Notes: generated by a model not told the origin, from the sequence alone. A stretch of 32,000 bases of DNA from Okeania sp. (GCF_035285525.1 NZ_JAYKGW010000058.1:19438-51437), one strand, 5' to 3'; positions 2,536 to 27,088 are shown, counted from the first letter of the stretch. Translations and numbers: made by a program.

Positions 2536-3576
2536 CTAAAGAATCCACTTAACTGCGTTCAACACTCCCTGTTTGACTGGAGAGCGATGAGGACTGCCAC
2601 CACTAGAACTCAATACATTTTCTCGATTAGCCAAATACCACTCATAGCTCTGAATCAACATTTCGCTGTTAGAATATTGTGGCTGCCAACCCAGTTCTGT
2701 AGTAGCTTTGGAAATATCAAAATACATCTCTCCACCGTATAACATGGCGTGATATATTCCCAAAGGAGAAACCCCTAGAGCGCTAGTAGCTTTCATTGCC
2801 CAAATTGTCGGTTTGGCTGGTAGTCCTTTAACTATAGAACCAGTTTTGGCGTGCTGACAAAGTGCTTCTAGGAGCGCCCGCATTGTGCCAAATCTGTCTG
2901 TACCACAGTTATAAAGTTCAGAACCGGGGCGACTTGCTGCTAAAATGCACGCTTCAGCAAGATCGTCAGAATGAACAAACTGATAGCGATTGTCACCTTT
3001 TCCCAAAACTGGTACATTATAGCCTTGGCGAATCCACTCGAACAGAATTTGAAAAATTCCTAACCTACCATGGCCTAACATTGTGCGGGGACGGATTATG
3101 GAAACATCTAACCCCTGCTGAATATAACTTTTGCAGAGATGCTCACCTTCTAGTTTAGCTTTACCGTAAGCTTCTAGTGGCTTAGGGATGTCAGCTTCTG
3201 TGACAGGATTTTTCTTGGGTATGCCAAAAATTGAGCTAGATGAAGTATAAACGACTTTTTTAACACTATTTGCCAGGGCTGCTGCTAACACATTTTCTGT
3301 TCCTTGAATATTTACAGAATTGAATAATTCTTTATTTTTAGCCAGTGGAACTTGGGCAACGCTGTGGTAAACTACATCTACATTTTGGCAGGCAGCTTTG
3401 ACGGCTTCAGCATCTCGAATATCACATTGGAATAGCTTAACATTGGCGGGGCGATCGGGTGCATCAATTATATCTAGGATACTGCAAGATATCCCTTTCT
3501 CCAGCAGCTTTTTTACTAAAAGCGAGCCAAAATATCCAGAGCCACCAGTTACTAAAGCAGAAGACATAACATTCAT
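2536..3576 (-). CDS. NAD-dependent epimerase/dehydratase family protein (extended SDR)
   Basis: 346-aa ORF with an N-terminal Rossmann motif VTGGSGYFGSLLVKKL and YxxxK as YGKAKLEGE. Typical length for extended SDRs. Confidence 0.85.
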   Translation of the reverse strand: MNVMSSALVTGGSGYFGSLLVKKLLEKGISCSILDIIDAPDRPANVKLFQCDIRDAEAVKAACQNVDVVYHSVAQVPLAKNKELFNSVNIQGTENVLAAALANSVKKVVYTSSSSIFGIPKKNPVTEADIPKPLEAYGKAKLEGEHLCKSYIQQGLDVSIIRPRTMLGHGRLGIFQILFEWIRQGYNVPVLGKGDNRYQFVHSDDLAEACILAASRPGSELYNCGTDRFGTMRALLEALCQHAKTGSIVKGLPAKPTIWAMKATSALGVSPLGIYHAMLYGGEMYFDISKATTELGWQPQYSNSEMLIQSYEWYLANRENVLSSSGGSPHRSPVKQGVLNAVKWIL

Positions 3577-3598
3577 AATTTTTTACCTCAATTAAATT

Positions 3599-3705
3599 AG
3601 GGAACAGGGAACAAGCAATAGGGAACAGGCAATATGTAACAGGGAACAGGGAATAGGCAATAGGCAATATGTAACAGGGAACAGGGAATAGGCAATAGGT
3701 AACAG
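3599..3705. repeat. STRR-like heptamer array (GGGAACA / GGGAATA / GGCAATA units) with a 35-bp higher-order unit repeated twice
   Basis: Read directly. It begins 23 nt upstream of the SDR start codon at 3576. Track ORFs 3464-3667 and 3597-3782 are artefacts of this array. Confidence 0.8.
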
Positions 3706-3711
3706 TTTACT

Positions 3712-3801
3712 GTAGGGGTTTGGTCTCCAAACCCCTTGGCGCTTTGGTTGGGAAACCAAACCCCCACAATAAAATCTGACAACCTATTTAGGATTGCGAT
3801 A
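3712..3801. repeat. Dispersed ~60-90-bp element GTAGGGGTTTGGTCTCCAAACC...ATAAAATCTGACAACCTATTTAGGATTGC(G/T)ATA
   Basis: Related copies at 17556-17616 and 31781-31870, a 5' fragment at 246-264 and a 3' fragment at 3826-3868. Confidence 0.7.
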
Positions 3802-3903
3802 ATTAGAGATATAGCAGTTTTCAGTAGGCCCTACCATAAAATCTGACAACCTATTTCAGATTGCTATAATTAGAGATAGTTTTCATTATCAATTATCAAT
3901 TAC

Positions 3904-3990
3904 ACGACTTACGAAAGCCACTATATATAGTCTTGGTGCGTTACGAAGTGCGCTAACGCACCCTACCAATAGCGTTTATGGGTAAGTCCT
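3904..3990. repeat. Degenerate member of the palindromic AGGACTTACGCA...TGCGTAAGTCCT MITE-like family
   Basis: Ends ACGACTTACGAA ... TGGGTAAGTCCT. Internal GGTGCGTTA..GCGCTAACGCACC stem. Confidence 0.55.
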
Positions 3991-4010
3991 AAATTATTAA
4001 TTATTAATTA

Positions 4011-5063
4011 TTAATTATTAAACATCCATGTCAAACTACGACGCATTCCTTCTTCTAAGTCAATCATGGGTTGATAACTTAGCTCTCGTTGCGCTTTGAC
4101 GATTGAGCAAGCAATGGTTTTGTTCATCTCGGAAAGTACATGAATTTTCTGGTGATAAACCCCTATTGCTTGCAGACTTCTGTCTACCAGCAAGGCTAGT
4201 TCGCTGACGAAACTAGGTAGCTTCAGGCGCGTGTGGCGACAGATTTGATGAAATTCTGTTTCTAAGAGATTTTCAACTGTGTCAACCACTTCATTCATGG
4301 TGTAAGGCCGTTCATCTGCAATCCAATAAGTTTCTCCCTTAGCTCTGGGAGTAATCCCTGCTAAAATCAGCCCTTGACAGAGATTTTCAGTATAAGCCAT
4401 CGAGCGCAAATTGTTACCATCACCAACTATTGGGCATTTGCCGGTTCTAATCATTTCAAAAAATAGTGTTTGCCGTGGTGGCTGATGGGGACCATAAAAC
4501 CAAGGGGCACGGATAATAACGGTTTCTAGTTTGCCAGCATCAAAGAAAGTCTTAATAGCTAACTCCATCTGCATTTTGGATTTTCCATACCCCATGTATG
4601 GGTTATAGGGAGAACTTTCATCAAACCGATGATCGGAATGAGGATTGCAACCACAAGGAGAGTTAGAAGACATGACGACTGCTCGTTTAACCGAGGCACT
4701 ATGGGCGGCTGCCAGAAGATTCTCAGTTCCCCTAACGTTCACCTGATTAAAGTCATCAATTTTTTGGGGATGGATTATTCCTGCTGTATGAAACAAAATA
4801 GCCCCTTTCGCACCCTGACAAAAGCGATCGCAATCTTCTGGATTACGCAAGTCTCCCGATACTACTTCTATTTTTTTTGAAAGTGCTTTTAGAGGTTTCT
4901 CATCAGTACCTGGTAACACAAAACAGCGAATCGTGAGGTCTGGTTGTGGATTTTTCAGGGCTTCACAGTCGGGCAATCCGGCAACCAGTGCCTTAACCAG
5001 ACTATATCCTAACCAGCCATTAGCTCCGGTTACTAAAACTAAAGGTGTATCAAAATTCATCAT
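4011..5063 (-). CDS. NAD-dependent epimerase/dehydratase family protein (extended SDR)
   Basis: 350-aa ORF with VTGANGWLGYSLVKAL Rossmann motif and YGKSKMQME (YxxxK). The ATG at 5063 lies 1 nt after the stop of the upstream GMC gene. The last codons and stop fall in an AT-rich TTATTAA heptamer run. Confidence 0.85.
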   Translation of the reverse strand: MMNFDTPLVLVTGANGWLGYSLVKALVAGLPDCEALKNPQPDLTIRCFVLPGTDEKPLKALSKKIEVVSGDLRNPEDCDRFCQGAKGAILFHTAGIIHPQKIDDFNQVNVRGTENLLAAAHSASVKRAVVMSSNSPCGCNPHSDHRFDESSPYNPYMGYGKSKMQMELAIKTFFDAGKLETVIIRAPWFYGPHQPPRQTLFFEMIRTGKCPIVGDGNNLRSMAYTENLCQGLILAGITPRAKGETYWIADERPYTMNEVVDTVENLLETEFHQICRHTRLKLPSFVSELALLVDRSLQAIGVYHQKIHVLSEMNKTIACSIVKAQRELSYQPMIDLEEGMRRSLTWMFNN

Positions 5064-5064
5064 T

Positions 5065-6540
5065 CTAGCTCTCTTCTAAAAAATGTAAAGCATTTCGTCG
5101 GGCAATAGCCATCACAGAACCTTGAGGATTTACTCCCAGAGCAGTACAGAGCAAACTGGCATCAGCAACATACAGATTTTCCTGTCGATGAACTTTACCA
5201 AAAGAGTTGGTTGCACATAACTCTAAGTTTTCTCCCATAGGGCAAGATGAAAACAAGTGAACTGTCATCAGACTGGTATCTGAGGGAAGTTGTTCGGGTA
5301 ACTGCTCTATGTCAGCTAGTGTAGTTAATCTGGTTGCTTTTGGTAGCAGTGGAAATATGGCTTTAGCTTTGGCAGCTATTAATAACCGACATAGATTTTT
5401 CAAGCCACTAGCTAATACCTGCAAATCATCAGAGGGCAGATTGTAACGCACCAAGGGATCGTCAAAGCCTGGCAAACAACGAACAGTACCTCTACCTGTT
5501 CCCTTTAGGGCAGCATAGTAAATGTTCATATTTTGCCAGTACTGATCGACTTCATGGGTGTATTCAGGATAATCCAACATGGCTAGTTGTAGGTAGGGGA
5601 GCGAACTGATAGAACCTCCAAAACTTAGCTTTGGTGCAAACTCTTTAACCTGATGCACAGCTACATCCAATTGTTCAGAGCTAACGGGTTCTGAAAATTG
5701 AGCAACAACTTTGACGGTGGGGTGCATCTGTAGGGCGTTACCTATATTGCGAGTGATGCCACTACGACGTAGCAATGCTGGTGTTTGTACTGCTCCAGCA
5801 GCGATAAAAACTGTTTTGGCAGTTATCTTAATTTGGTATGGGGAGGAACTATTGGTATAAAGTCCTTGGAGAATCCAGCGATCACCGAGACGACGGAGCT
5901 TTTTTATTTTAGTGTTGGCGAGAATTTTACCCCCTGTGCGCAGCATTTCGGGAACATAAGTTTTCGTCATAGATTGCTTAGTTCCCTTGAAAGCAACACT
6001 AGGGTCGTTATTTGGTTCGTACTTAAACCAACGGGGTACTTCCTGGGAGTCCCAACCAAGCTGAGTTGCACCTTCCTGCAATTTGAGAGATGCGAGGGAA
6101 GGTTTATCGGGTAGATAACTAACACTAACGGCATTTTCGCAGGCTTCATAGTGGGGAGCAAGTTCTGCTTCTGTCAGCTTTTGCACCTGAAATTTTTCTT
6201 GCCAGTGAGCTAAGACATCGGAAGGAATGCGGTGATAAAGCCCGCTATTGACTTCGCTGCCACCACCGACACATCTGCCCTCAACATACTGAATTTTGGG
6301 ACTGCCAAACGCAACAGTAAGACCGCGATTCCGATATTTTTGCACCATCTCTTCCTGAGAAAAGGGGGTACATGATTCCAAAGGCAAATAAGGACCTTCT
6401 TCAATCAGTAAAACGTCGAGTCCAGCTTTGCTAAGAGTTGCAGCCGTAACCGCTCCCCCAGGGCCTGAACCAACAATAGCAACTTCGCAGTTGAGAGCAG
6501 TATCTGGCTCAGTGAGAATGTTTTGTTCGCATACTGTCAT
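5065..6540 (-). CDS. GMC-family FAD-dependent oxidoreductase
   Basis: 491-aa ORF with VAIVGSGPGGAVTAATLSKAGLDVLLIEEG (FAD beta-alpha-beta), HLFSSCPMG and a C-terminal NLYVADASLLCTALGVNPQGSVMAIARR typical of GMC C-terminal domains. Confidence 0.85.
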   Translation of the reverse strand: MTVCEQNILTEPDTALNCEVAIVGSGPGGAVTAATLSKAGLDVLLIEEGPYLPLESCTPFSQEEMVQKYRNRGLTVAFGSPKIQYVEGRCVGGGSEVNSGLYHRIPSDVLAHWQEKFQVQKLTEAELAPHYEACENAVSVSYLPDKPSLASLKLQEGATQLGWDSQEVPRWFKYEPNNDPSVAFKGTKQSMTKTYVPEMLRTGGKILANTKIKKLRRLGDRWILQGLYTNSSSPYQIKITAKTVFIAAGAVQTPALLRRSGITRNIGNALQMHPTVKVVAQFSEPVSSEQLDVAVHQVKEFAPKLSFGGSISSLPYLQLAMLDYPEYTHEVDQYWQNMNIYYAALKGTGRGTVRCLPGFDDPLVRYNLPSDDLQVLASGLKNLCRLLIAAKAKAIFPLLPKATRLTTLADIEQLPEQLPSDTSLMTVHLFSSCPMGENLELCATNSFGKVHRQENLYVADASLLCTALGVNPQGSVMAIARRNALHFLEES

Positions 6541-6562
6541 GTCAATTTTTCCTGGCTCACTT

Positions 6563-6842
6563 TAATAATTAATAATTAATAATTAATAATTAATAATTGA
6601 TAATTAGGGTTTACTGATTAAATTTCCAACCAATAATAAATTCTGAATTATCTAATCTAATAGATATCTCCAGAAATCAAAAATTCCATCAATTATCCTA
6701 CATAAATTATCAATTTAATAATTAATAATTGATAATTAGGTCTTACTGATTAAATTTCCAATCAATAATAAATTCTGAATTATTTAATAGATATCTCCAG
6801 AAATCAAAAACTCCATCAATTATCCTACATAAATTATCAATT
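6563..6842. repeat. Tandem duplication, two units (6563-6715 and 6716-6842), each an AT-rich TAATAAT heptamer run followed by ~110 bp of unique sequence
   Basis: GATAATTAGG(G/T)(T/C)TTACTGATTAAATTTCCAA..AATAATAAATTCTGAATTAT..ATAGATATCTCCAGAAATCAAAAA.TCCATCAATTATCCTACATAAATTATCAATT occurs twice in tandem. The array lies directly upstream of the GMC start (6540). Confidence 0.8.
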
Positions 6843-6933
6843 ATTTCTTCCTATTGCCTATTGCTGATTAGACATCTCTAAAAATTAAAAATATAATCAA
6901 TTATTATCCATAAATCATCAATTACTCCCCCCC

Positions 6934-6971
6934 GTTCCCTGTTCCCTGTTCGTTGTTCCCTGTTCCCTATT
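6934..6971. repeat. STRR-like heptamer array (GTTCCCT units)
   Basis: GTTCCCTGTTCCCTGTTCGTTGTTCCCTGTTCCCTATT read directly. The flanking TTATCCATAAATCATCAAT.ACTCCCC block also occurs at 2455-2480. Confidence 0.75.
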
Positions 6972-7014
6972 TTCTGGAGATACCTATTGCCTATTCCCTC
7001 TTGTATAGAAATAT

Positions 7015-7362
7015 CTAATTATTAATTATTTGATAATAACTAAATATGGTTAAGCTTTCGTAAAATCTTATCAAGTCACGACAAACTCTCAGAGGTGACA
7101 TTTTCCAAGTTGCTATCTGATTAACTCGAATAGTCGGTGGAAGTTGATGAAACCTTTTGCCTCGTCTGATGATTGAGCAAAAATCAAAAATAGCCGTGAG
7201 GATAAACAGGGGTAGTTTTAGATAGTCAGGCATATTTCTATATTGTGAGCTGACAAACTCAACAACTTGATTATTAGGGAAGTGTAACAGAGGCTGATGT
7301 TTCTCTGAGTGTTTATTAATAAATGTATAACAAAGTGCAGATATAGTTGGTTCAAAATTCAT
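7015..7362 (-). CDS. Hypothetical 115-aa protein with one hydrophobic segment (LKLPLFILTAIFDFCSII)
   Basis: ORF co-oriented between the UbiA-like and GMC genes. I recognise no family. The C-terminal codons run into an AT-rich repeat. Confidence 0.5.
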   Translation of the reverse strand: MNFEPTISALCYTFINKHSEKHQPLLHFPNNQVVEFVSSQYRNMPDYLKLPLFILTAIFDFCSIIRRGKRFHQLPPTIRVNQIATWKMSPLRVCRDLIRFYESLTIFSYYQIINN

Positions 7363-7548
7363 TGTTAAATTAATTTTTATAGAAACATTCTGATGAATTG
7401 AGAAAATTGAATTAAATTAACTAAATAATACCATGTCCGGTAGCATCGTTTGTGTATAAAACTAAGATGACAATGGGAGAAAACCTTCTGCCTCCTGCTT
7501 TCTTCCTTCTGCCTTCCTTCCAGCAAAGTCTAATTATTCAACCGCAGA

Positions 7549-8544
7549 TTATATAACGCCTTGACTGTTGAGCCAAAGTGTCAAAGTGCAAGTTATTAGC
7601 CAAGCAATTATTGTATATTGAATATGCTCATCGGAAAGTAACACTCGATCGGGAACTTCTGTCCTGTGGTTGACTGCCTTAACTTTTTCCGGCTTTTCCT
7701 GTAACTGATGAACCTTTACTGCGGAGTCACCTAAGAGCTGATATCGGAAGATACCGTACATGACAAAGGGTAAGGTAATGCTCATCCAAGGAGTTGGTAC
7801 TTCACAAAAATCAGAACTGCAATTCCAGCCAGAACTCCAAATAGCATAACTCATAACTGCTCCTGTTGCTACAATACTTTCCATACGATTGAGCAGTGGT
7901 AAAGAATATACTTTGAGAACCTCGCGGGTAATGACTTTTCCTTTGAGTTGCAAATTGTGTAACTCTGCCTTGCGCTTCTCAATAGCTAAGAACAGAGCCA
8001 GCATTGCTATAAATATTAAAAACCATGGGGAGGGATATATATTAGTGACGATAAACCCAGCGCCAGCTCTTAAAACAAATCCACTAGCGATACAAGCAAT
8101 ATCCAATAGTGGCATTTCCTTAAGCTTTAAATTGTAGGCAACCTGAATCAGAGAGTAACAGGTTAGCACTGCTCCCAGGGATAAGCTGCAAAACCAGCTA
8201 AAACTCAGGGTTACTAATAGAAACAAACTGGCCATAGTTACAGCAATGGGTACACTGATATGTCCCGCTGCAATCGCCCGATTGCACTTAACTGGATGCT
8301 GACGATCTGACTCTAGATCTTTGACATCATTTAACAGGTAAAAACTGCTAGATACTATACAAAATAGACAAAATGCTATGAGAGTAGAGGAAAAAGAATT
8401 AATATTTATCTGAAAAGCAAAAAGTGGTGCAGCGAAGACCAACAAATTTTTTGTCCACTGGTTCGGTCTTAATGCCATGAAATAAGTTTTCAATGTCCCA
8501 TCTTTGATGGATAGACTATTATTACAAGTCATTTGTTCAACCAT
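7549..8544 (-). CDS. UbiA-family polyprenyl-phosphate phosphoribosyltransferase-like membrane protein (decaprenyl-phosphate phosphoribosyltransferase family)
   Basis: 331-aa polytopic ORF with ALRPNQWTKNLLVFAAPLF, the Asp-rich motif NDVKDLESD, then RQHPVKCNRAIAAGHIS. From memory this resembles the Rv3806c-type subgroup rather than quinone or chlorophyll prenyltransferases. The start could also be an internal Met. Confidence 0.75.
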   Translation of the reverse strand: MVEQMTCNNSLSIKDGTLKTYFMALRPNQWTKNLLVFAAPLFAFQININSFSSTLIAFCLFCIVSSSFYLLNDVKDLESDRQHPVKCNRAIAAGHISVPIAVTMASLFLLVTLSFSWFCSLSLGAVLTCYSLIQVAYNLKLKEMPLLDIACIASGFVLRAGAGFIVTNIYPSPWFLIFIAMLALFLAIEKRKAELHNLQLKGKVITREVLKVYSLPLLNRMESIVATGAVMSYAIWSSGWNCSSDFCEVPTPWMSITLPFVMYGIFRYQLLGDSAVKVHQLQEKPEKVKAVNHRTEVPDRVLLSDEHIQYTIIAWLITCTLTLWLNSQGVI

Positions 8545-9228
8545 ACAATAAATCTAGTTTGATATCGAAACAAATAATAAACCAATAATAATTAAATCAT
8601 AATTACATTGATATTCTTTTCACCTTTCTGGCTTTTTGCATATAATAGCAGAAAACAGGGGGCAGAAGTAAATATTTATGCTTAATATTTTCTTGAGAAT
8701 CTGACGAATGAGAAAGTTAAATAAAGATAATTCTTACAGTATAAATATTTATATATACTAATAGGACTTACGCATTCACGCTATTAGTAGTAGTACGTCA
8801 AGGTTGAAAATGTGAGTTAAAAACCTAACCCCCCCCTGCAACGGAAGCTATGCTTTATAAACATCTTTATTTTCTTAACATAAAACTTGACAAGTTATGA
8901 GTAAATATTAATTCGGCTTTTTTGAAAATAAAGTATAAAAAAGTACATTTTTTTTGCAATTACTTAAGTATTTGTATTTAGCTACTATGATTGTTTCTCC
9001 TTTCTCCACTGCTCTCTTCTCCCCGTCTCCCCACAAAAGTTTCAGGATTTCCTGGTAATGGATAGGCAAGGGAAGGGAGAGAAATATAGCGCTGCACGCA
9101 GGCAACAGGCAACAGGCAACAGGGAAGAGGGAGAATAAATTGCTTATAATATAAGGCTTTTAGCTATTGGAAACCTCCTGCAAGTTGTAAAGCGTAAAGT
9201 GCGCACATTGCTATATTTTTCTTGTCGC

Positions 9229-11961
9229 TTATGCTCTCAGGATGAAATCATTCTCACTAATAGATGCAGTATTAGTGAGATTAGCAAATTCACTACCGCT
9301 ACCAAATTCTGCTTCTGTTCCATTAGGATTGTAGAATAACTTCCCGTTACTGCTGTTGTAAACAATAACTCCTGAAGAAGTTTCGGCATCAGCATCAGTC
9401 GTAACTATGGCAAATTCACCATTGATACTGAAACCTCTTCCTGAGTCACTGGTAATAGCAGTAAATGTAGTTTTGTCAAGTATAATTCTATCTTTTTCTG
9501 GCAGAAAATCACTGATGGTATCTATTCCCACATCTTCTTGAGCAAATTCTTGATTAGTATTGAAAATAAAACTGTCAATACCCCCTCCACCAATGAGAGT
9601 ATCGTCACCAGCACCACCGTTAAAGCGATCGCGACCTTGACCACCAATCAGAGAGTCGTCACCATTACCACCAAAGAGGCGATCGCTACCCTGACGACCT
9701 TGGAGGGTATCATTTCCGTTTTTGCCAAACAGGAAGTCATTACCTCGATTACCTATAATTTGGTCATCACCACCACTACCATTGATAGTGTCATTACCTG
9801 CTAAACCTTTAATAGTGTTATTTTCATTTGTACCATTCAGACGATCGCTTTTAGGAGTACCAGTGATATTTGGTGAAATTTGTAATTCTACTGCACCAAT
9901 ATCAACCCCTTCTCCTACAAACCGTGGTTCCCCTCTTTGGTCTGTCGTCAGTGAGTTCGGATTACTACCTGCATCAATGGCGGGACTATTGGGGAAAGGT
10001 AAGTAAGTTAACGTGAGACCACCATTGTCACTAAGGTCTCCAAGTAGAGGATCGGTGATACCTGTTTTGTCGCTATCATCGTCAAAAATATCAATAGCGT
10101 TACCTGTACCAATTAGATTATTGCCACCACTAACAACAGTGTTATTATTTCCTCTAGAGTCAAAATCAGTGCTAGAATTACCAGAGACAATACTAGAGGT
10201 AACAGTAGTATTGGGGTTGAATTCTAACTCATTAATAACTTTAGTCAGAATACCACTTCCTTGATTTGGTTGACCTCCATTACCAGTAATCGTACTATTA
10301 CTGATGCTAGCTGTTCCAGCATTATATATACCACCACCATGGTTAGATATACCTCCGCTAAAAGTGCTATTACTAATATTTGTTGTACCTGTGTTGTAGA
10401 CACCGCCACCACGATTCGCTGAATTCGTACTAAAAGTGCTATTGATAACATCTGTTTGACCTGAGTTCCTGATACCACCACCTGCTAAAAATGTAACATT
10501 TCCACTAAAAGTGGTGTTAGTGATAATAGCTTCGCCTGAGTTATTAATTCCACCACCATTATAAGCATAATTACCACTAATATCGCTATTATTAATGCTA
10601 GCAGTACCTGTGTTAAAGATACCACCACCATCACTTGTATCTGCTGAATTACCACTAATAGTGCTGTCGCTAATATTAACTGTACCTGAATTGAAGATAC
10701 CACCGCCATTACTCCCAGCTGTACCTAGTGAATTTCCAGTAACATTACTGTTATTCAAAGTGACTATACCTGAATTCGAGATACCAGCACCGGTTATATC
10801 TGCTGAGTTTCCACTAATAGTGCTATCTTTGAGATTAACTGTACCTGTGTTTTGAATACCTCCACCAAGACTATTACCAAAATTATCACTAATAGTGCTA
10901 TTGTTCAGATTGACTGTACCTGTGTTTTGAATACCTCCACCATAAAATGCTGAATTTCCACTAATAGTGCTCTTGGTAATATTCGTTGTACCTGTGTTGT
11001 TAATCCCTCCACCACCATTTAAGAAATTCTCTAAATTTCCACTAATAGTGCTGTTATTGAGAGTAAGTGTACCTGAGTTGAAGATACCACCACCAGAATC
11101 ATTTGTTACAAAACCACCTGTAACTTCGGCATTTTGCAACTCTAGATTTGCATTCTCCAAAACATGAAATACTCGATCGCCTAATCCTTCTATACCTCCA
11201 GCATCAATAACTGTTTTTTCAACTCCGTCAGAAATAATTGTTGTTTCTCCACTTCCTGCTACAATATCTAAATCTCCCGTTGCAGCAGCATCTTCATCAC
11301 TTCCTGAGATAGTCAGATTATACGTTGCTCCTGCTGTCAGTTGAATAGTATCATCTTCTGGGGTACTGTTTGCTTTAATTATTGCTTCCCGCAGAGAAGT
11401 AACTCCATCACTATCATCTACTATATCTTCAGTAGTATTTACCACAATATCTGCCAACACTCCTGCATAACTCGCCCTAATTTCTGGAGTAAATGCTAAC
11501 GCTGACTTGAATTTACCGAATATTACTTCTAAATTCCAATTACCACCTCTGTTAATATTTCCTGTCAGGGTTTCCGAGGCAGCAATATTTGCTCCGGTGA
11601 GTTGATGCAGTTGTCGGACAAATTTTTTACCTTCTTTACCACTTGCTACCTGACAACCATAAATTAATATTTCCCCATCAGCAGACAAACATTTACCCCA
11701 CTGCTGCATACTTTCGACGTATAAATGAATATTGTCATTTTTCAGGATACTATTTCCCAGATACAAAGTACCTTTTGCTCCATGAGAAATAATATGAACT
11801 GTTTCCAGATTATGGCATTCACCCAAACTTTTAGATATTTGTTCTATACCATTTTGATTGGGTTGTAGAATAACTACTTCTGTCTGAGAATCAACCTGTG
11901 AGATGAGGTGACTGTAATTTTCTACCTGGGAGTCGATGAATAATAATTTGGTTTTGTGCAT
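9229..11961 (-). CDS. Large secreted repeat protein: DUF4347-like N-terminus, parallel beta-helix repeats, C-terminal RTX calcium-binding repeats
   Basis: ORF 9229-12018, with the likely start at ATG 11961 (MHKTKLLFIDSQVENY..HIISHGAKGTLYLG). About 13 units of NSTISGN..GGGI.N.GT follow. Eight GGxGxD nonapeptides run from GSGGDDQII to GGGGIDSFI. No signal peptide, consistent with a type I secretion substrate. Confidence 0.85.
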   Translation of the reverse strand: MHKTKLLFIDSQVENYSHLISQVDSQTEVVILQPNQNGIEQISKSLGECHNLETVHIISHGAKGTLYLGNSILKNDNIHLYVESMQQWGKCLSADGEILIYGCQVASGKEGKKFVRQLHQLTGANIAASETLTGNINRGGNWNLEVIFGKFKSALAFTPEIRASYAGVLADIVVNTTEDIVDDSDGVTSLREAIIKANSTPEDDTIQLTAGATYNLTISGSDEDAAATGDLDIVAGSGETTIISDGVEKTVIDAGGIEGLGDRVFHVLENANLELQNAEVTGGFVTNDSGGGIFNSGTLTLNNSTISGNLENFLNGGGGINNTGTTNITKSTISGNSAFYGGGIQNTGTVNLNNSTISDNFGNSLGGGIQNTGTVNLKDSTISGNSADITGAGISNSGIVTLNNSNVTGNSLGTAGSNGGGIFNSGTVNISDSTISGNSADTSDGGGIFNTGTASINNSDISGNYAYNGGGINNSGEAIITNTTFSGNVTFLAGGGIRNSGQTDVINSTFSTNSANRGGGVYNTGTTNISNSTFSGGISNHGGGIYNAGTASISNSTITGNGGQPNQGSGILTKVINELEFNPNTTVTSSIVSGNSSTDFDSRGNNNTVVSGGNNLIGTGNAIDIFDDDSDKTGITDPLLGDLSDNGGLTLTYLPFPNSPAIDAGSNPNSLTTDQRGEPRFVGEGVDIGAVELQISPNITGTPKSDRLNGTNENNTIKGLAGNDTINGSGGDDQIIGNRGNDFLFGKNGNDTLQGRQGSDRLFGGNGDDSLIGGQGRDRFNGGAGDDTLIGGGGIDSFIFNTNQEFAQEDVGIDTISDFLPEKDRIILDKTTFTAITSDSGRGFSINGEFAIVTTDADAETSSGVIVYNSSNGKLFYNPNGTEAEFGSGSEFANLTNTASISENDFILRA

Positions 11962-12024
11962 AATTTTAGAAGGGTTTTCAAGTGTAGGAAAAATTAAAAT
12001 TAGCAAGTATTCTAGCATTAATAC

Positions 12025-14889: not shown

Positions 14890-17007
14890 TTACGGTTCAA
14901 TGTAGTTTTCCACTGTTTTGAAGGTATTGCCTTTTGAAAACTGATACTCGTAAAGGGTTTGGAAAAACTTAAGATCGACCTGGCGCCAGCTAACCCAGCC
15001 AATTCCTGAATATCTATCATCAGACAACGAGTACAATACAAAGCTTAACACATGGTTGATGTAAATGAGCGAAAATCCTTCTTGCTCCAGGATGACATTT
15101 TCTGTGTTACTGCGCTGATGTACCATGATCTGAAATGGTGATTCGTTGTTCCAGTCATCTTGAATAGATTGATTAAGAGCATTATATACCTGATTTTTGA
15201 AGTGATGAGTGTCATGCTCAAGCACGAAGCGAAACTCTTCTCTTTCGGTGTCCATTGCCGTTCTCTTGAAAAAATCATGGTGTCCGTCGGTTATAATCTT
15301 GTGGACAAAAGGAATGGAATATATAGCCTTGACATGACCTAAAGCATAAAGCGCTTCCACCGTCTCCAGTTGTTCGACAAAAAAGCGTCCCTGCTCAAGA
15401 TCAAAGCTATTATCAATCACTCGCTTCAATTCAGGAACTTCCTCCAGTTGATCGGGATCAATATTCCTTAACAAAGCGGGGATGCTTTGTCTTTTTTGAT
15501 ATTGCGTATCAAGAACTAAAGTAAGTTCTTTCGTCTCACCAGCAAGCAGATGATCTCTTAGTTGACGTTGGAAAGAAGGAAGGTATATCTTCTGGTTTTC
15601 ATTCCAAAACATTGACCTAATTGACAACTCTGCCGATGAATCGACATTGTTATTCGTTTTCCAATCTGCAACCACATGACCGACAACCTGTGATTTACCT
15701 AAGAAGGAGCCCCGTTTAGCTTGCCAAATCTGTACAGCTTTATGGGTTGGTCTGACGGGACCGACTTTCAAACTGTATTGGTTATCGAAGCTATAGGTAT
15801 AAACTTTTTCTTCTTGACGATTCTGTTGCGCGATTCGCTCAATGTTGCCTTCCATAGGTGTTCCTGGAAGGGAGAACTTCACTCCTGAAGATGTTTGTGT
15901 AGAAGAAAGGTTTCTCCTGACATTATTATCACTGAATGAAATGCTCTGATCGTTCAAATCAGCATAGTATTCTTTTACCAGAGTAAACCTAATTCCAGAC
16001 AAATTATTGAAATAATCAGCGTCTAGTAAAAATCTGTTTAACTTTTCATACAGCCAACTTAGTAGTAGTGATAAAAACAGTGGAATTAACACCAACATCA
16101 TCAGTTCCCAGGGAGTCGATAACCATAAAAAGGAAAGAAAAGAATTATCTGTTTGATCTAAGAACATATCAAATGCCAAAACATATTGATTTCCATCCAT
16201 GTCTTTGAAACGATACCAGAGTGCTCTGATGGCATTGGGAGTCCTTTTATCAGTGATATCAATGAAAATTCCAGTAAGTCCTGATGTACCTTCATAAACT
16301 TTTTGCGAATAAAAAGTCTCATATTCATTTATACTAGATTTATACCAAGGGCGCTCTCTGTAGTTAAGTTTTCTGTTATTGAAAACTCCATCTGAAGTCC
16401 CAGGATAAAGAGCTATAACACCATTTTTTTCATCAAATAAGTAGACAGTGTCTATTCTGAATCCAGGTACTCGATCTAAAAAATTCAGATCGCCTGTGAG
16501 ATACTTAATAAATATTCTGCTATGTTCTAGACTAACGTCTTCAGGTTTTTTCGAGAGTAACTTCTCACCTTGCTGAAGCATTAGTTTTTGAAATTGACGA
16601 AAAACAACGCTTTGTTTTGATTGGTCAGATCGCTTTTGGTATTCGGTCTTCGATTCCGTATCAAAGTCAGCGATATAGATACAATCAAAATAGGCATCTT
16701 TTTTTATACTATTTTTTTTAATTTCTATTTTGAGAGCGTTATTACATTTACTAAAATCTGAAAGTTCTTGATTTTGGGGCAACACGCGCAGACCGTCAAT
16801 CTCATCCTCAAGATTTTCCTGAGCTTTCTTGATAAAATCTTCAAAAACCTGAGTTTTAGGTGTTTCTTCTTTCAAACTTTGATGCCATGCAATATTAAGA
16901 GCTTGTCGCTCTAATTCCTGACGTAATCGAAAAATTGGAACTTCAACGAAACAGATTGCGATAAAAATCAACAAAAGCCTTACTGGTTTTACAGATTGCA
17001 AATTCAT
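14890..17007 (-). CDS. Two-TM membrane protein with a Cache-like extracytoplasmic region and an unassigned ~385-aa cytoplasmic region
   Basis: ORF 14890-17037. The preferred start is ATG 17007 (MNLQSVKP..), preceded by GGAG about 10 nt upstream. In 715-aa ORF numbering, TM1 is about 19-36 and TM2 about 301-330. YRERPWYKSS at 226-235 resembles the RPWY signature of Cache sensor domains. I see no HAMP, H-box, GGDEF, EAL, MCP or Walker motif downstream. Confidence 0.75.
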   Translation of the reverse strand: MNLQSVKPVRLLLIFIAICFVEVPIFRLRQELERQALNIAWHQSLKEETPKTQVFEDFIKKAQENLEDEIDGLRVLPQNQELSDFSKCNNALKIEIKKNSIKKDAYFDCIYIADFDTESKTEYQKRSDQSKQSVVFRQFQKLMLQQGEKLLSKKPEDVSLEHSRIFIKYLTGDLNFLDRVPGFRIDTVYLFDEKNGVIALYPGTSDGVFNNRKLNYRERPWYKSSINEYETFYSQKVYEGTSGLTGIFIDITDKRTPNAIRALWYRFKDMDGNQYVLAFDMFLDQTDNSFLSFLWLSTPWELMMLVLIPLFLSLLLSWLYEKLNRFLLDADYFNNLSGIRFTLVKEYYADLNDQSISFSDNNVRRNLSSTQTSSGVKFSLPGTPMEGNIERIAQQNRQEEKVYTYSFDNQYSLKVGPVRPTHKAVQIWQAKRGSFLGKSQVVGHVVADWKTNNNVDSSAELSIRSMFWNENQKIYLPSFQRQLRDHLLAGETKELTLVLDTQYQKRQSIPALLRNIDPDQLEEVPELKRVIDNSFDLEQGRFFVEQLETVEALYALGHVKAIYSIPFVHKIITDGHHDFFKRTAMDTEREEFRFVLEHDTHHFKNQVYNALNQSIQDDWNNESPFQIMVHQRSNTENVILEQEGFSLIYINHVLSFVLYSLSDDRYSGIGWVSWRQVDLKFFQTLYEYQFSKGNTFKTVENYIEP

Positions 17008-17440
17008 TGCATAATTTCTCCACAACAACAACAACATCGGTCAAACCAAACAGATTGAGGAAACAGCTAAAGAAAACTAAATATAGTGTTAGTGCAATTT
17101 GCGATCAGCTTCCTTTAATTCTCTTGAAGGTTTGAAAATTTTTAGGTATCAAAAAGTGCTAGCTTTTAGGTGTTTCCACACAAAAATTTAGCATTTTGGG
17201 TAAGAGTTGGGCAGAAAAACTAAGGGACAATTTTTCCGAGTACTTCTTCTATAATTCTCATTGATTCTGATACCAAATCCGGGCACAAAAAAGGTGTATA
17301 CATATATATTGGTTAACACCTTTATACCTCTAAAATAATTAAGCTTAAACTTAAACTACCTGAATAAAAAGTTAGTTTCCGTAAATAAATTTATGTAGAT
17401 TTATATAGATTATCGAGGAGTTTTTAATAGCATAAATTAT

Positions 17441-19919: not shown

Positions 19920-19997
19920 TGATTAACTCGAAAACTGCTATCATTTAGTGATATATTGTGAAATAGTTCAGGTCTTGAATAATTGGGTTACAAAATA

Positions 19998-20810
19998 ATG
20001 AAAGATAGAAATAAAGCATTACAAGGTCGAACCGCTATAATTACAGGATCAGGTCAGAATATAGGTAGATCGATCGCCTTATTATTTGCCTCATCTGGTG
20101 CTAACGTGGTCATTAATGGTCATCGCCATCAAGAAGCAATTGAAAAAGTTGCCCAAGAAGCTCGTGATTTAGGGGGTCAAGCAATAGCAGTAATGGCGGA
20201 TGTGAGTAACCCTGATGCAGTACAAAACATGGTTGATTCTGCTATAGAAAAGTTTGGTGCAGTTGATATTGCTGTCTCTAATGTTTCCCTCCGAAAAAGA
20301 CAAAATTTTTCAGATATTTCCCTTGAAGATTGGCATCAAGTAATTAATACAAACCTTAATTCTGCATTCTATCTAGCTAAGGCCACAATCCCAGGGATGA
20401 AAGCTAGAGGATGGGGTCGGATTATTCATATTTCTGGTTATGATGGTTCAATAGGTGCAGCACACCGCGCTCATAATGTTACTTGTAAAGGAGGTCTTGA
20501 TGCTTTCGCTAAAGCGATCGCTACAGAACTTGGACCCTACGGAATTACTGCAAATACTGTTAGTCCAGGGACGATTGATACTGCTCGTATTGCTAAAGAT
20601 TACCCCAATTTACAAACTAAATACGAAACTATGAAAAAATTGATTCCTGTGGGTCGTCTGGGAACTTCGGAAGATATAGCTGAAGCTTGCCTATATCTTG
20701 CTTCGGATTTTGGTAGCTTTGTTAATGGTCAAGTTATTAATATTAATGGTGGTGCTTTGATGATTACTGCTCATTTAGATCCCATTATTGAACAACTCCA
20801 GGTTCAATAA
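19998..20810 (+). CDS. SDR-family protein with an atypical active site (Asn at the catalytic Tyr position)
   Basis: The track ORF starts at TTG 19983. The first ATG is 19998 (MKDRNKALQGRTAIITGSGQNIGRSIA). A gapless alignment to the classical IS..(12 aa)..YxxxK spacing gives HISGYDGSIGAAHRAHNVTCK. Ser and Lys are therefore present and Tyr is replaced by Asn, with His one residue earlier. NNAG is SNVS. Confidence 0.85.
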   Translation: MKDRNKALQGRTAIITGSGQNIGRSIALLFASSGANVVINGHRHQEAIEKVAQEARDLGGQAIAVMADVSNPDAVQNMVDSAIEKFGAVDIAVSNVSLRKRQNFSDISLEDWHQVINTNLNSAFYLAKATIPGMKARGWGRIIHISGYDGSIGAAHRAHNVTCKGGLDAFAKAIATELGPYGITANTVSPGTIDTARIAKDYPNLQTKYETMKKLIPVGRLGTSEDIAEACLYLASDFGSFVNGQVININGGALMITAHLDPIIEQLQVQ

Positions 20811-21201: not shown

Positions 21202-22020
21202 ATGAATCAACCGGTTAAAAAAGCTTTTTTAGACACAGAAGACGGACAAATTTTTTACCGCATTGGAGGAGCTGGAGAACCTCTAGTTTTACTTCCTATG
21301 ACTCCTCGAAGTAGCGATGAATTTAAAGAATTAATGGCAATTTTAGCTCCTAAATATCGTGTTATTGCTATGGACTTAATGGGGTTAGGAGATTCTGATA
21401 AACCTCCTAGAGAATATTCTATTTCAGACTATGCTAAAACTGTTATTTTATTGTTAGATGAATTAGGAATTAAAAAATGTAATATTTTAGGAAATTTAAC
21501 GGGGGGTTATATTGCTGGAGAAGTTGCTGTATCTTATGGCGATCGCTTGCATAAATTAATCCTTTGTAATACTCATGGTTTTGATGCAGAAGAAGCGGAA
21601 AAAATTATTCAAAGATATAGTCAAGGATTTACCATAAAAGAAGATGGTTCCCATCTCATGGAAAGATGGTTAGCAAGAATTAATTATGTAGGAAAAGGAG
21701 CATTAAATCACCGTTGTGTTTTAGATGATTTAAAAGCTTTTGGAGGAACTATTTACCCTGGAGTTGCTCTGGGTAAATATTGTCTTTCTGCTCCAGAAAG
21801 GTTTAAAATTATTCAATGTCCGACCTTAGTTTGTAATGGTACTAAAGCTTTAGAGCCTTTAGACAAATATGGTTTTGTCAAGATAGAAAATCAAGGTTGG
21901 TTATCTGAAGTAATTCCTCATAGTCAAACAGTTAAAATCTCTGGAGGAACTTTATGGATGATTAATCAAATGGCTGAAGAAATATCTACAGTTATTGTTG
22001 ATTTTTTAGATAAAATATAG
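21202..22020 (+). CDS. Alpha/beta-hydrolase-fold protein, paralog 1, non-canonical nucleophile elbow GNLTGG
   Basis: 272-aa ORF with the typical AB_hydrolase_1 layout (..VIAMDLMGLGDSDKP..YSISDYAKTVILLLDELGIKKCNILG..). Thr (ACG 21499-21501) occupies the Ser position. HG is replaced by PM. The late aGH motif reads GGT. Confidence 0.85.
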   Translation: MNQPVKKAFLDTEDGQIFYRIGGAGEPLVLLPMTPRSSDEFKELMAILAPKYRVIAMDLMGLGDSDKPPREYSISDYAKTVILLLDELGIKKCNILGNLTGGYIAGEVAVSYGDRLHKLILCNTHGFDAEEAEKIIQRYSQGFTIKEDGSHLMERWLARINYVGKGALNHRCVLDDLKAFGGTIYPGVALGKYCLSAPERFKIIQCPTLVCNGTKALEPLDKYGFVKIENQGWLSEVIPHSQTVKISGGTLWMINQMAEEISTVIVDFLDKI

Positions 22021-22040: not shown

Positions 22041-22850
22041 ATGAAAATAAAGAGAGCATTTTTAGATACAGAAGACGGGCAAATACATTATCGAATTGGA
22101 GGAGAAGGTGAACCACTAATTTTGCTGCATCAAAATCCAATAAGTAGTGATGAATATCGAGAATTAATGCCTTTATTTATTAAAGAAAAAAAGTTAGTTA
22201 TTGCTATGGATTTTTTGGGTTTTGGTGAATCCGATAAACCTCCTAGAATGTATTACATTGAAGACTATGCCAAAACAGTTACTTTACTTCTAGATAAATT
22301 AGGAATCAAAAAAGCAAATATTCTTGGGTATCATACAGGTGGTTTTGTAGCAGCAGAAGTAGCAGCAGCATACCCAAAAATAGTTAACAAACTTGTGTTA
22401 TGTGGCATTGATTATTTTGAGGAAGAGCAAATAAAAAAACTTTATAATAAATTTTCTGAAGTTTACCAAATTAAAGAAGATGGTTCTCACCTAACAAAAA
22501 GATGGTCTGTTCGTTTAAGTTATGTAGATTTAGAATTAAATCATCGTTGTTTATTAGATGAGTTTAAATGCCATGGTTATCCTCCCTATGGTCCTTTGGC
22601 AATAATGAATTATGCAGAAAAAAGCTTAGAAAGATTTAGATTAATCAATTGTAAAACCTTGATATTATCTGGAACAGAAGACATCAAACAACTAGAAAAA
22701 TTGGGAATTGCAAAAGCAGAAAATAGAAAATTTATTGGTGAAACAATTACTAATGCTAAGATGGTTAATATTGAAGGTGGTACTGTTTATATGATGAATC
22801 AAATGCCTAAGGAAATTGCTAAAGTAGTTATGGACTTTTTAGATAATTAG
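22041..22850 (+). CDS. Alpha/beta-hydrolase-fold protein, paralog 2, nucleophile elbow GYHTGG
   Basis: 269-aa ORF starting 20 nt after paralog 1, about half the residues identical by eye. Thr (ACA 22335-22337) occupies the nucleophile position. The late motif is GGTVYMMNQMPKE with no His. Confidence 0.85.
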   Translation: MKIKRAFLDTEDGQIHYRIGGEGEPLILLHQNPISSDEYRELMPLFIKEKKLVIAMDFLGFGESDKPPRMYYIEDYAKTVTLLLDKLGIKKANILGYHTGGFVAAEVAAAYPKIVNKLVLCGIDYFEEEQIKKLYNKFSEVYQIKEDGSHLTKRWSVRLSYVDLELNHRCLLDEFKCHGYPPYGPLAIMNYAEKSLERFRLINCKTLILSGTEDIKQLEKLGIAKAENRKFIGETITNAKMVNIEGGTVYMMNQMPKEIAKVVMDFLDN

Positions 22851-26866: not shown

Positions 26867-27088
26867 GAAAATAATTGACATCTATAGCAGCACTTAATAT
26901 TTACAAATTGCAGCAGGTGTCCAAGCAGCTCAAAGCTTTATATTATAGGCAATTTATTCTCCCAGTTAAGTGTTCCCCCTATACCTGTTCCCTGCGCGGA
27001 GCACTATACGGAAAAGAGTTAGTAGGGACTATGCAACGTCTCTACCATTTCTAACAAAAATTTATCACGCTTGCTATAAAAGTTGATT

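Follow-up and report, generated by a model that had tools for sequence, protein, structure and literature searches.

In the three-component pentofuranose systems (Kelly et al. 2024, PMC11127046), a polyprenyl-phosphate 5-phosphoribosyltransferase (PPPRS), paired with a phosphoribose phosphatase, is combined with a flippase (MATE, SMR or GtrA), a GT-C glycosyltransferase and auxiliary epimerases. The epimerase characterised in that study is a single GalE-like SDR, which converts Ribf to Xylf. A GMC flavoenzyme and its partner are mentioned nowhere in the paper or its supplement, and cyanobacteria are not covered. Fig. S12 of the same work does include a locus of Rhizobium sp. CCGE531, and this locus was found to carry the same small-GMC-SDR-SDR gene set as the module of Okeania sp. 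described below.

The window analysed, i.e. the whole stretch of 32 kb of Okeania DNA, contains five co-oriented ORFs on the minus strand, and both their positions and the protein types named in the original prediction were confirmed by an ORF check and by Pfam domains. We propose with moderate confidence that the five genes constitute one module, which makes and tailors a polyprenyl-phosphate-linked pentofuranose on the cytoplasmic side of the membrane. The arrangement goes far beyond what chance would give, as the same genes are found in identical order in other cyanobacterial contigs and across phyla.

The UbiA-fold protein (7549-8544; 331 aa, PF01040) is a predicted PPPRS (DPPR synthase) of the Rv3806c family. 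Among the NCBIfam equivalog models, NF008978 gave 228.4 bits, above its cut-off of 207, and the next-best matches were other DPPRS/PRK08238 models, whereas the models for MenA, other UbiA proteins, ChlG, HPT and heme O synthase gave at most 21 bits. The DPPR-synthase model thus won the comparison of UbiA subfamilies, and the protein groups, as had been anticipated, with the phosphoribosyltransferases and not with the aromatic prenyltransferases. Its sole PDB matches are the structures of Rv3806c (8j8j/8j8k, E 6e-39). Thirteen ligand residues have been described for Rv3806c (R22, K28, Y70, N73, D77, K87, R90, Q135, Y138, K143, Y157, K191 and K208; PMC10994848), which according to the structures serve as ligands of Mg2+, the ribose, the 5'-phosphate, the pyrophosphate and the lipid phosphate. 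Aligned to 8j8j with HMMER, the Okeania protein has 11 of them unchanged, the two exceptions being a Phe at Y157, a substitution that is tolerated in mycobacteria, and a Glu at K208. The ligands of PRPP, Mg and the lipid phosphate are thus conserved.

The flavoenzyme of the module (5065-6540; 491 aa) has the GMC fold (PF00732, 106.6 bits; PF05199, 62.1 bits) and not the VAO fold (PF01565, NF053785). All its matches to NCBIfam equivalog models stay far below cut-off, and the protein represents a distinct, highly conserved subfamily of the GMC FAD oxidoreductases. The motif GSGPGG, His428 and Asn471 are invariant among 70 homologues, and by their position the latter two are the putative GMC catalytic pair. 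The AF2 model (pLDDT 84, pTM 0.87) matches GMC structures, which confirms the fold at the level of the model, and is about equidistant (TM 0.65-0.74) from fructose dehydrogenase, cholesterol oxidase, choline oxidase and the pyranose oxidases. Since oxidases of primary and of secondary alcohols are found at similar TM-scores, the structural neighbours leave the regiochemistry of the enzyme unconstrained.

The gene encoding a 115-aa protein (7015-7362) appears to specify the partner of the GMC protein, to whose N-terminus the small domain is fused in other phyla. Indeed, the 115-aa protein shares 44% identity (E 6e-34) with residues 9-116 of one such fused GMC protein (P0239, 619 aa), and of 120 loci that have both genes, 118 have the small one at most 200 nt upstream of GMC. 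The family is unannotated and comprises 546 cluster representatives, most of 110-170 aa and a few fused forms of 618-675 aa. No Pfam or PDB match and no detectable similarity to the small subunits of FDH or GDH were found for the 115-aa protein, which has a single hydrophobic stretch (residues 47-66) and neither a Tat nor a Sec signal. AF2 models the small domain of the fusion as all-helical, with six helices at a pLDDT of mostly 70-90. The partner role had been missed in an earlier reading of the sequence.

Both remaining proteins are extended SDRs (TGxxGxxG, YxxxK, 346-350 aa, PF01370). SDR A (4011-5063; 350 aa; motifs TGANGWLG and YGKSK, E 1.7e-27), a candidate keto-reductase, has dTDP-glucose 4,6-dehydratase (1r6d, E 8e-22) as its best PDB relative. 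The coordinates verify the gap of a single base between the stop codon of the GMC gene (TAG, 5067-5065) and the start codon of SDR A (ATG, 5063-5061), so that the two genes are predicted to be translationally coupled; among 89 loci that carry an SDR A gene, 76 have it no more than 150 nt downstream of GMC. The GalE-like SDR B (2536-3576; 346 aa; motifs TGGSGYFG and YGKAK, E 1.3e-41), a candidate second epimerase or reductase, has UDP-glucose 4-epimerase (4zrm, E 2.5e-23) and sterol-4-alpha-carboxylate 3-dehydrogenase as best PDB relatives, and shares 52% identity with the SDR encoded in the y4n cluster of NGR234. For neither SDR does an NCBIfam equivalog model reach its cut-off, and NF053786 is not among the matches; neither is thus a DprE2-type classical SDR (~250 aa, NF053786). 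Distant GMC homologues (38-45% identity) retain the triad GMC-SDR A-SDR B.

The gene series is interrupted by two spacers, in which heptamer arrays of the STRR type and a tandem duplication of 132 bp are found. One of them separates SDR A from SDR B (3577-4010, 434 bp) and contains about 15 AGGGAAC-type heptamers at 3599-3705, and tblastn detected no gene remnant in it. The other, which separates the small gene from the GMC gene (6541-7014, 474 bp) and holds heptamer arrays and the tandem duplication, is probably a secondary expansion, since in two close relatives (L004 and L005) these genes overlap by 4 nt. Terminator-like sites are not enriched in the region (5 found against 5.0 expected from shuffles).

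The module recurs in at least six phyla. The UbiA-GMC-SDR neighbourhood is kept in related genomes, both in cyanobacterial contigs with the same order and across other phyla. Within 46 well-flanked genome loci, the small gene was present in 45, the UbiA gene in 40, and SDR A and SDR B in 37 each, accompanied by an SMR gene (18), a HAD gene (16) or a polytopic protein without Pfam match (17). Four subtypes of PPPRS occur with the cassette: the NF008978 type, to which the Okeania protein belongs, an NF008977-like type (Planktothrix), a PRK08238-type HAD-UbiA fusion (Verrucomicrobia and rhizobia) and a Bacillaceae type. In some lineages the GMC gene is accompanied by SDR B alone, or by no SDR within 10 kb, which suggests that a fixed pairing of oxidase and reductase is not universal.

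Pfam analysis, including the other long ORFs, and tblastn with GT-C, HAD, SMR and DprE1-type proteins from related loci detected no GT-C, PAP2, HAD, SMR or FAD_binding_4 (DprE1-type) gene in the window, so that the lack of GT-C, PAP2 and DprE1-type genes noted earlier held; nor was any other phosphatase found there, although a PPPRS is present. In the relatives, genes for a HAD phosphatase, a flippase-like protein of the SMR type and a polytopic candidate GT-C accompany the module. Three close relatives (L004-L006) have a HAD gene after SDR B, and in Nostoc (L013) nine co-directional genes are found in the order HAD-UbiA-small-GMC-SDR A-DUF218-polytopic (614 aa)-SDR B-SMR. The polytopic proteins of the relatives (525-658 aa) have no Pfam or PDB match; their architecture and a statement in the supplement of PMC11127046 make them candidate GT-C enzymes. 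In Nostoc MS1 and Cylindrospermum a UbiA-HAD-SMR-like-GT-C series occurs in which the cassette is absent, and therefore the GMC cassette seems to be an addition to a more basic system for ribofuranose.

The identity of the PPPRS and the very wide conservation of the neighbourhood make it most likely that the module acts on a lipid-linked pentose, derived from ribose and remodelled by oxidation and reduction. The PPPRS would convert PRPP and polyprenyl-P to polyprenyl-P-ribose-5-P. Judging from the relatives, a phosphatase encoded outside the window would strip the 5'-phosphate from this product; in the relatives this is a HAD enzyme, either fused to UbiA or standalone. The GMC protein and its helical partner would then, as a two-part flavoenzyme, oxidise a hydroxyl of the lipid-linked ribofuranose. 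The coupled SDR A would reduce the carbonyl with inversion of configuration, and the GalE-like SDR B would contribute a further epimerisation or reduction. The resulting donor, an epimer or derivative of ribose, would be passed to a flippase and a GT-C encoded elsewhere in the Okeania genome.

The original prediction placed the GMC enzyme where DprE1 would be. On this reading the enzyme, with its partner, would act as a non-orthologous DprE1 at C2' of polyprenyl-P-ribofuranose, an extended SDR would take the place of DprE2, and polyprenyl-P-D-arabinofuranose would be the product. Flavin-dependent oxidation followed by nicotinamide-dependent reduction is indeed the established logic for this substrate (PMC11127046), the GMC gene adjoins and is apparently coupled to SDR A, and the GMC relatives include enzymes that oxidise sugars at C2 or C3. 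Moreover, none of about 150 non-Bacillaceae loci contains a DprE1/E2-like gene, the small-GMC pair and such genes being mutually exclusive in every non-Bacillaceae locus examined. However, a functional stand-in should exclude DprE1 from the same pathway locus, whereas in four Bacillaceae genera (L074, L076, L083 and L090) the small and GMC genes, orthologous to the Okeania pair (52-56% identity), are clustered with a DprE1-like gene (NF053785, 450 bits against a cut-off of 500) and a DprE2-like classical SDR, and both extended SDRs are absent from these clusters. This coexistence represents one evolutionary event in four related genera, which form a clade nested among SDR-bearing clades in an NJ tree without bootstrap. 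DprE1/E2-type loci that lack the GMC gene are, in addition, common in Bacteroidota, Rhodobacterales, rhizobia and others, the conservation of two SDRs would be left unexplained, and the searchable literature records no D-Araf glycan from these cyanobacteria. We therefore consider action at C2' unlikely, and a simple replacement of DprE1 is disfavoured. The GMC enzyme probably complements DprE1/E2 and is not interchangeable with it; of the original proposal the lipid-linked pentose route is supported, whereas a GMC 2'-oxidase that makes D-Araf is improbable.

Since DprE1/E2 provide the C2' reaction in the Bacillaceae module, the GMC step is probably not the C2' step and C3' or C5' is left for it. 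Attack at C3' is our tentative preference, and C5' may be the site instead. In a more specific form of the latter, the GMC reaction would be a terminal modification that turns the 5'-CH2OH, once freed of its phosphate, into an aldehyde or carboxylate, and the two SDRs would be the epimerases, equivalent in cyanobacteria to the Bacillaceae DprE1/DprE2 pair. This would account for the constancy of the small-GMC pair while SDR A and SDR B alternate with DprE1-like and DprE2-like genes, and for loci with the GMC gene only. Many GMC enzymes act on primary alcohols, choline oxidase and HMF oxidase being among the closest folds, and a single SDR (ORF13) epimerises und-P-Ribf to und-P-Xylf (PMC11127046). 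The tight coupling of the GMC gene to SDR A nevertheless suggests a paired reaction, and the lineages with SDR B alone indicate that the two SDRs are no obligate pair. Pentofuranuronic acids and dialdoses are not known to occur in glycans, and we regard this form as still less probable than oxidation at C2'. Very improbable, in our view, is that the genes do not serve one glycan-donor pathway at all, their clustering in Okeania being incidental or the product being a free glycolipid or a secondary metabolite and not a donor for a GT-C. Neither a flippase nor a GT-C is found in the window, several loci (e.g. L035 of Planktothrix) have no GT-C nearby, and the 434- and 474-bp spacers could hold separate promoters; yet synteny extends over four PPPRS subtypes and at least six phyla, close relatives have the genes abutting or overlapping, SMR and polytopic proteins often adjoin the module, and in Peribacillus it is embedded in a Wzx/Wzy polysaccharide locus with a PMT_2 GT-C. 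Under the preferred reading of a tailored lipid-linked pentofuranose, the final sugar may be Xylf, Lyxf, Araf or an oxidised pentose, D-Araf being possible but not favoured.

The module is widely conserved yet uncharacterised, and DprE1 is a drug target in tuberculosis. New here are the assignment of the 115-aa partner, the recurrence in multiple phyla and the coexistence with DprE1/E2-like genes in Bacillaceae. Compared to the mycobacterial decaprenyl-phospho-arabinose pathway (Rv3806c, Rv3807c, DprE1, DprE2), the first enzyme is of the same family with its ligands kept, and the logic of remodelling a lipid-linked ribose by redox enzymes before its use by GT-C enzymes is shared. The mycobacterial pathway, however, uses a VAO-fold DprE1, a classical-SDR DprE2 and a PAP2 phosphatase, whereas the Okeania module has a GMC flavoenzyme with a separate partner protein and a pair of extended SDRs, its relatives having a HAD phosphatase. 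The noeCHOP genes for Nod-factor arabinosylation in Azorhizobium and Rhizobium sp. IRBG74 and the loci of Chondrinema and of Ruegeria plasmids are non-actinobacterial cases of a PPPRS with a transferase and adjacent redox genes, but with DprE1/DprE2 orthologues and no GMC enzyme, small partner or extended SDR pair. Cholesterol oxidase, fructose dehydrogenase and FAD-glucose dehydrogenase share the GMC fold (TM ~0.7) at marginal sequence similarity (E ~1e-8 to 1e-16); such membrane-associated enzymes act at the membrane on a hydroxyl group of a lipid or a sugar, and FDH and GDH have a small accessory polypeptide. The three-component systems have their flippase and GT-C in the locus, whereas the Okeania window has neither. 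The relatives of the module combine a PPPRS, often fused to HAD, with a flippase (SMR or other), a candidate GT-C and auxiliary epimerases. On the basis of the HAD, SMR flippase-like and candidate GT-C genes in these loci, the Okeania module is a predicted member of the three-component pentofuranose systems.

The five minus-strand genes of the original prediction were recovered at exactly the positions it gave. They encode a UbiA-like protein (7549-8544; Pfam PF01040), a small protein of 115 aa without a Pfam family (7015-7362), a GMC oxidoreductase containing both GMC domains of Pfam (5065-6540), and two extended SDRs with the Pfam Epimerase domain, SDR A (4011-5063) and SDR B (2536-3576), both with intact catalytic motifs. 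One base separates the GMC stop from the SDR A start, and the 32-kb window holds no recognizable GT-C, PAP2 or DprE1-type gene, both as had been stated; HAD and SMR genes were not found in the window either, and an Rfam scan of it returned no family. To extend the Okeania contig past the window in search of HAD, SMR or GT-C genes, only Logan contigs of 1.6-2.1 kb came up. In NCBI, Okeania entries match the UbiA-like and GMC proteins with 100% identity. The two long spacers of the module are filled with STRR-type heptamers and a 132-bp tandem duplication; over all its intergenic spacers, these repeats, with dense arrays of the types AGGGAAC/CCCTGTT and TTAATAA, occupy 2130-2150, 2503-2530, 3599-3705, 6562-6606, 6583-6842, 6930-6968, 7484-7520 and 9099-9123. 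Since the same gene pairs abut or overlap in close relatives, the spacers represent secondary repeat expansions. A promoter/terminator scan found terminator-like sites in them at chance level only, which has no bearing on the operon question.

Directly upstream of the module, on the minus strand, lies the gene of a 929-aa protein (9229-12018) with an N-terminal DUF4347 domain, C-terminal RTX calcium-binding nonapeptides and internal repeats (period about 75 nt) of beta-helix-like NxTxSGN units, and is probably either secreted or located at the cell surface. Two other minus-strand ORFs have no Pfam match. The 715-aa product of 14890-17037 carries hydrophobic segments near the N-terminus and in mid-protein and resembles none of the polytopic proteins that are GT-C candidates in related loci; the 754-aa product of 29265-31529 has clear internal repeats in its N- and C-terminal thirds (...YLHYPDFNIHPHPALKNS...PPVLHRKETFVTPEYRHYQKFAKLT... 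versus ...YLFYPDFDKEAHPVLHTT...PPILHRKDALVTSDYPHYEKFAKLT...). On the plus strand, the translations of two tandem paralogues of about 270 aa (21202-22020 and 22041-22850) show alpha/beta-hydrolase-like motifs. Together with the nearby classical SDRs (19983-20810 and 25799-26506), a DUF4437/cupin protein and a 4-hydroxyphenylpyruvate-dioxygenase-like gene (27083-28150), they may form a separate small metabolic cluster.

The UbiA-like protein scored 228.4 bits against the NCBIfam model NF008978 for decaprenyl-phosphate phosphoribosyltransferase (cut-off 207), and its second to fourth matches were sister models of NF008978; the models for chlorophyll synthase, homogentisate phytyltransferase, heme O synthase and generic UbiA proteins reached at most 21 bits. 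Its sole match among all PDB sequences is Rv3806c (8j8j/8j8k; E 6e-39). For that structure the ligands of Mg2+, ribose, 5'-phosphate, pyrophosphate and decaprenyl phosphate have been described (PMC10994848), and 11 of these 13 residues are identical in a HMMER alignment. The exceptions are Tyr157, replaced by Phe as in some mycobacteria (PMC10994848), and Lys208, replaced by Glu. The protein thus groups with the phosphoribosyltransferases; a place among the aromatic prenyltransferases would have spoken against the original prediction. Judged by its sequence it is a polyprenyl-phosphate phosphoribosyltransferase (PPPRS).

The GMC protein has only marginal sequence similarity to solved GMC enzymes. 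Invariant in 70 homologues are GSGPGG, His428 (within TVHLFSSCPMGE) and Asn471 (within GVNPQG), which by their position are assigned as the FAD motif and the catalytic His/Asn pair of GMC enzymes. An AF2 model (pLDDT 84, pTM 0.87) has the GMC fold and is about equally close (TM 0.65-0.74) to fructose dehydrogenase, cholesterol oxidase, choline oxidase, pyranose oxidases and C-glycoside 3-oxidase. The regiochemistry could not be read from these fold neighbours (two models, pLDDT 68 and 84) nor from a profile comparison with the PDB, as primary- and secondary-alcohol oxidases appear in both, equally distant in the former. No signal peptide was found in the protein, and it should therefore act in the cytoplasm. 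The subfamily retains 52-62% identity across cyanobacteria, Verrucomicrobia, Planctomycetes, Acidobacteria and Bacillaceae; a match in Embleya (30% identity) was set aside, since its context is unrelated and lacks UbiA.

Outside the cyanobacteria many GMC homologues are 610-630 aa long, and one such fused protein, of 619 aa, matches the 115-aa protein along its residues 9-116 (44% identity, E 6e-34). The small gene precedes the GMC gene by at most 200 nt in 118 of the 120 loci in which both could be detected. On this evidence from its relatives, the 115-aa protein is a partner of the GMC enzyme. Its family comprises 546 cluster representatives in a library of 1.84 billion proteins, mostly stand-alone and 110-170 aa long; no Pfam relatives were found among 29 members, nor any PDB relatives by profile search. 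Kinship with the small subunits of fructose, gluconate and glucose dehydrogenases was dropped on the same grounds. In an AF2 model of a natural fusion (overall pLDDT a moderate 68, N-terminal domain mostly 70-90) the small domain is shown as a predicted six-helix bundle and not as a single transmembrane anchor.

The neighbourhood proved to be kept in related genomes, across cyanobacteria and other phyla. Okeania SIO3I5 contains the same five genes (80-92% identity), and on contigs with a UbiA 61-70% identical the order is UbiA-small-GMC-SDR A-SDR B, followed by a HAD phosphatase. A verrucomicrobial contig encodes a HAD-UbiA fusion, a fused small-GMC protein, SDR A, a polytopic protein of 530 aa and SDR B. 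The rhizobial plasmids pNGR234a (where it is the 'y4nJ' cluster), pMLa and pRCCGE531b likewise have SDR B-SMR-small-GMC, along with a hypothetical protein of 658 aa, SDR A and HAD-UbiA. A scan of one genome per species with the GMC alignment yielded at least 544 relatives, the best 80 loci of which were mapped by tblastn. In the 46 of these whose flanks reach 5 kb upstream and 8 kb downstream or more, the small gene was found in 45, a DPPRS-type UbiA in 40, SDR A and SDR B in 37 each, an SMR-type transporter in 18, a polytopic protein without Pfam match in 17 and HAD in 16, so that synteny with phosphatase, flippase-like and polytopic genes is conserved as well. The polytopic neighbours matched neither Pfam nor PDB sequences, which gives no support for recognizable GT-C enzymes among them. 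SDR A follows GMC within 150 nt in 76 of 89 loci, and in a metagenome scan ranked on a Bacillaceae sequence, GMC homologues of 38-45% identity still occur with the GMC-SDR A-SDR B triad. With about one PPPRS per genome, we roughly estimate the chance of finding it within 10 kb of a given gene at well below 1%. The cassette of small, GMC and SDR genes is moreover joined to four PPPRS subtypes (NF008978-type, NF008977-like in Planktothrix, HAD-fused PRK08238 type and Bacillaceae type), which argues for a functional rather than merely inherited linkage.

The partner enzymes of GMC behave as a toolkit rather than a fixed pair. Two clades have GMC with SDR B only, a few loci SDR A only, and some verrucomicrobial GMC loci no SDR within 10 kb. 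An aldo-keto reductase was ruled out as a substitute in the latter because it is also present where both SDRs are. In several Verrucomicrobia it adjoins the polytopic gene of 525 aa, in divergent orientation to the HAD-UbiA/GMC genes and with or without SDRs (locus L063, 5374-6408 and 4642-5367; likewise L062, L068, L069, L071, L072, L073 and L075), and a LigT-like phosphoesterase accompanies the 525-aa gene in five of the eight. In Nostoc (L013, 12521-13099) and Planktothrix (L035, 12620-13180) a DUF218-family gene (weak Pfam matches) lies within the module and separates SDR A from SDR B.

Four Bacillaceae loci (Ectobacillus, Aeribacillus, Peribacillus and Metabacillus) combine GMC with a DprE1/E2-like pair, in the order metallophosphoesterase, small, GMC, UbiA, 451-aa FAD_binding_4/ALO protein, 246-aa classical SDR, LPG_synthase_TM, DUF212 and PMT_2 GT-C; SDR A and SDR B are absent from all four. 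Both members of the pair fall short of the model cut-offs, the 451-aa protein with 450 bits for the DprE1 equivalog NF053785 (cut-off 500) and the SDR with 153 bits for the DprE2 model (cut-off 250). The GMC (52-56%) and small (43-45%) proteins are as similar to those of the window as their verrucomicrobial counterparts. In Peribacillus a Wzx/Wzy polysaccharide locus surrounds the module and contains no other reductase. Around the module in P. frigoritolerans (L083, 1-21464) are UDP-glucose dehydrogenase, GT4, an asparagine-synthase-like protein, Wzy, DegT and Wzx, and further a GT52-like protein, Wzz, UDP-GlcNAc 2-epimerase, a formyltransferase and PIG-L. A rough NJ tree, which has no support values, nests the Bacillaceae among clades whose loci all have SDR A, SDR B and UbiA, and the deepest branches have them as well, so that the DprE1/E2 state of the Bacillaceae is derived.

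It is tempting, but probably wrong, to equate the GMC enzyme with DprE1. The original prediction assigned the module to a lipid-linked pentose, which the PPPRS and its conserved neighbours support, and placed GMC where DprE1 would be, which is weakened by the coexistence of both in the Bacillaceae. GMC-free PPPRS loci that have DprE1/E2-type genes are common (Chondrinema and Ruegeria plasmids, noeCHOP), so DprE1/E2 are enough for 2'-epimerisation, and the GMC pair is kept beside them. Read most simply, GMC catalyses a reaction different from that of DprE1 or one that comes on top of it. The exact DprE1/DprE2 analogy, yielding D-Araf, is in line with the lack of a DprE1-like gene in some 150 other loci, but we regard it as unlikely in view of the Bacillaceae. 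Besides C2', a 1-phospho-linked furanose offers the hydroxyls at C3' and, once dephosphorylated, C5'. We lean towards a mechanism in which GMC and its small partner would oxidise a hydroxyl of polyprenyl-P-ribofuranose at a carbon other than C2', with C3' as a tentative preference. The translationally coupled SDR A would reduce the keto intermediate with inversion, SDR B would be a further epimerase or reductase, and the product would be flipped and then used by a GT-C encoded elsewhere in Okeania.

Oxidation at C5' as a terminal step, with the SDRs as the real epimerases, would suit the primary-alcohol oxidases among the fold neighbours; secondary-alcohol oxidases are equally near, and we consider it a rather improbable course. 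The readings cannot be separated further in silico. That the genes serve no glycan-donor pathway, or cluster incidentally, is highly improbable given the four PPPRS subtypes. A bolder and doubtful proposal is that this previously unrecognised two-part flavoenzyme, GMC with a six-helix partner of an unannotated family, would with extended SDRs convert polyprenyl-phospho-ribofuranose to a pentofuranose donor that is so far not known as a building block of glycans. Cyanobacteria, Verrucomicrobia, Planctomycetes, Acidobacteria, Bacillaceae and symbiosis plasmids of rhizobia would have this pathway. One candidate is D-lyxofuranose, which would require inversion at both C2' and C3', by GMC/SDR A and SDR B in cyanobacteria and by GMC and DprE1/E2 in Bacillaceae; keto or uronic pentofuranoses are others.

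Mycobacterial arabinan, at which ethambutol and DprE1 inhibitors are aimed, is built from lipid-linked pentofuranose donors, and since 2024 such pentofuranoses have also been seen as a widespread means of decorating bacterial surface glycans. The present systems form a large, phylogenetically broad set with a conserved, so far uncharacterised redox cassette, and their carriers include Verrucomicrobia abundant in soil, symbiosis plasmids of rhizobia and cyanobacteria that form blooms or mats. Solving the reaction would define a new enzyme pair on polyprenyl-phospho-sugars, probably reveal the pentose in unknown envelope glycans of the carriers, supply parts for glycoengineering and put to the test what Kelly et al. 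predicted, namely that sets of epimerases make the pentofuranose diverse and that lyxofuranose, so far never observed, is among the forms produced.

In the searchable literature we found no description of the small-GMC-two-SDR cassette, its breadth, the partner fusion or the coexistence with DprE1/E2, and nothing on a GMC enzyme tied to polyprenyl-phospho-ribose, the y4nJ cluster or cyanobacterial D-Araf. Simpler sets occur in Nostoc sp. MS1 (L001, 10001-12953) and Cylindrospermum PCC 7417 (L003, 10001-14101; within a large Wzx/Wzy/Wzz polysaccharide locus), where a HAD phosphatase, a small protein of EamA/SMR-like type and a GT-C (PMT_2 or GT87) come after a UbiA about 54% identical to that of the window, and redox genes are absent. 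In heterocystous cyanobacteria these sets may plausibly give rise to ribofuranose side chains. In two Nostoc MAGs with HAD and UbiA of these types, the SMR gene is preceded by an insertion of small-GMC-SDR A-DUF218-polytopic 614 aa-SDR B. The cassette thus looks like an add-on to a basic ribofuranose system, which fits the framework of Kelly et al. 2024 (PMC11127046): PPPRS and phosphatase yield und-P-Ribf, a flippase and GT-C attach Ribf to the glycan outside the cytoplasm, and auxiliary epimerases alter the pentose (the single SDR ORF13 to Xylf, DprE1/E2 to Araf). That paper, whose coverage lies outside the cyanobacteria, and its supplement contain neither the word GMC nor oxidoreductase; the supplement notes 'more elaborate systems with multiple different epimerases' for Xanthomonas and Bacillus, and the candidates of its Fig. 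S12 include Rhizobium sp. CCGE531 (CP032687.1), the locus of which is the same module as that of the window. The system class is therefore already known, with one member locus listed. Compared with the Chondrinema and Ruegeria plasmid loci and noeCHOP, which have DprE1/E2-type genes without GMC, the Okeania module has GMC without a DprE1-type gene.
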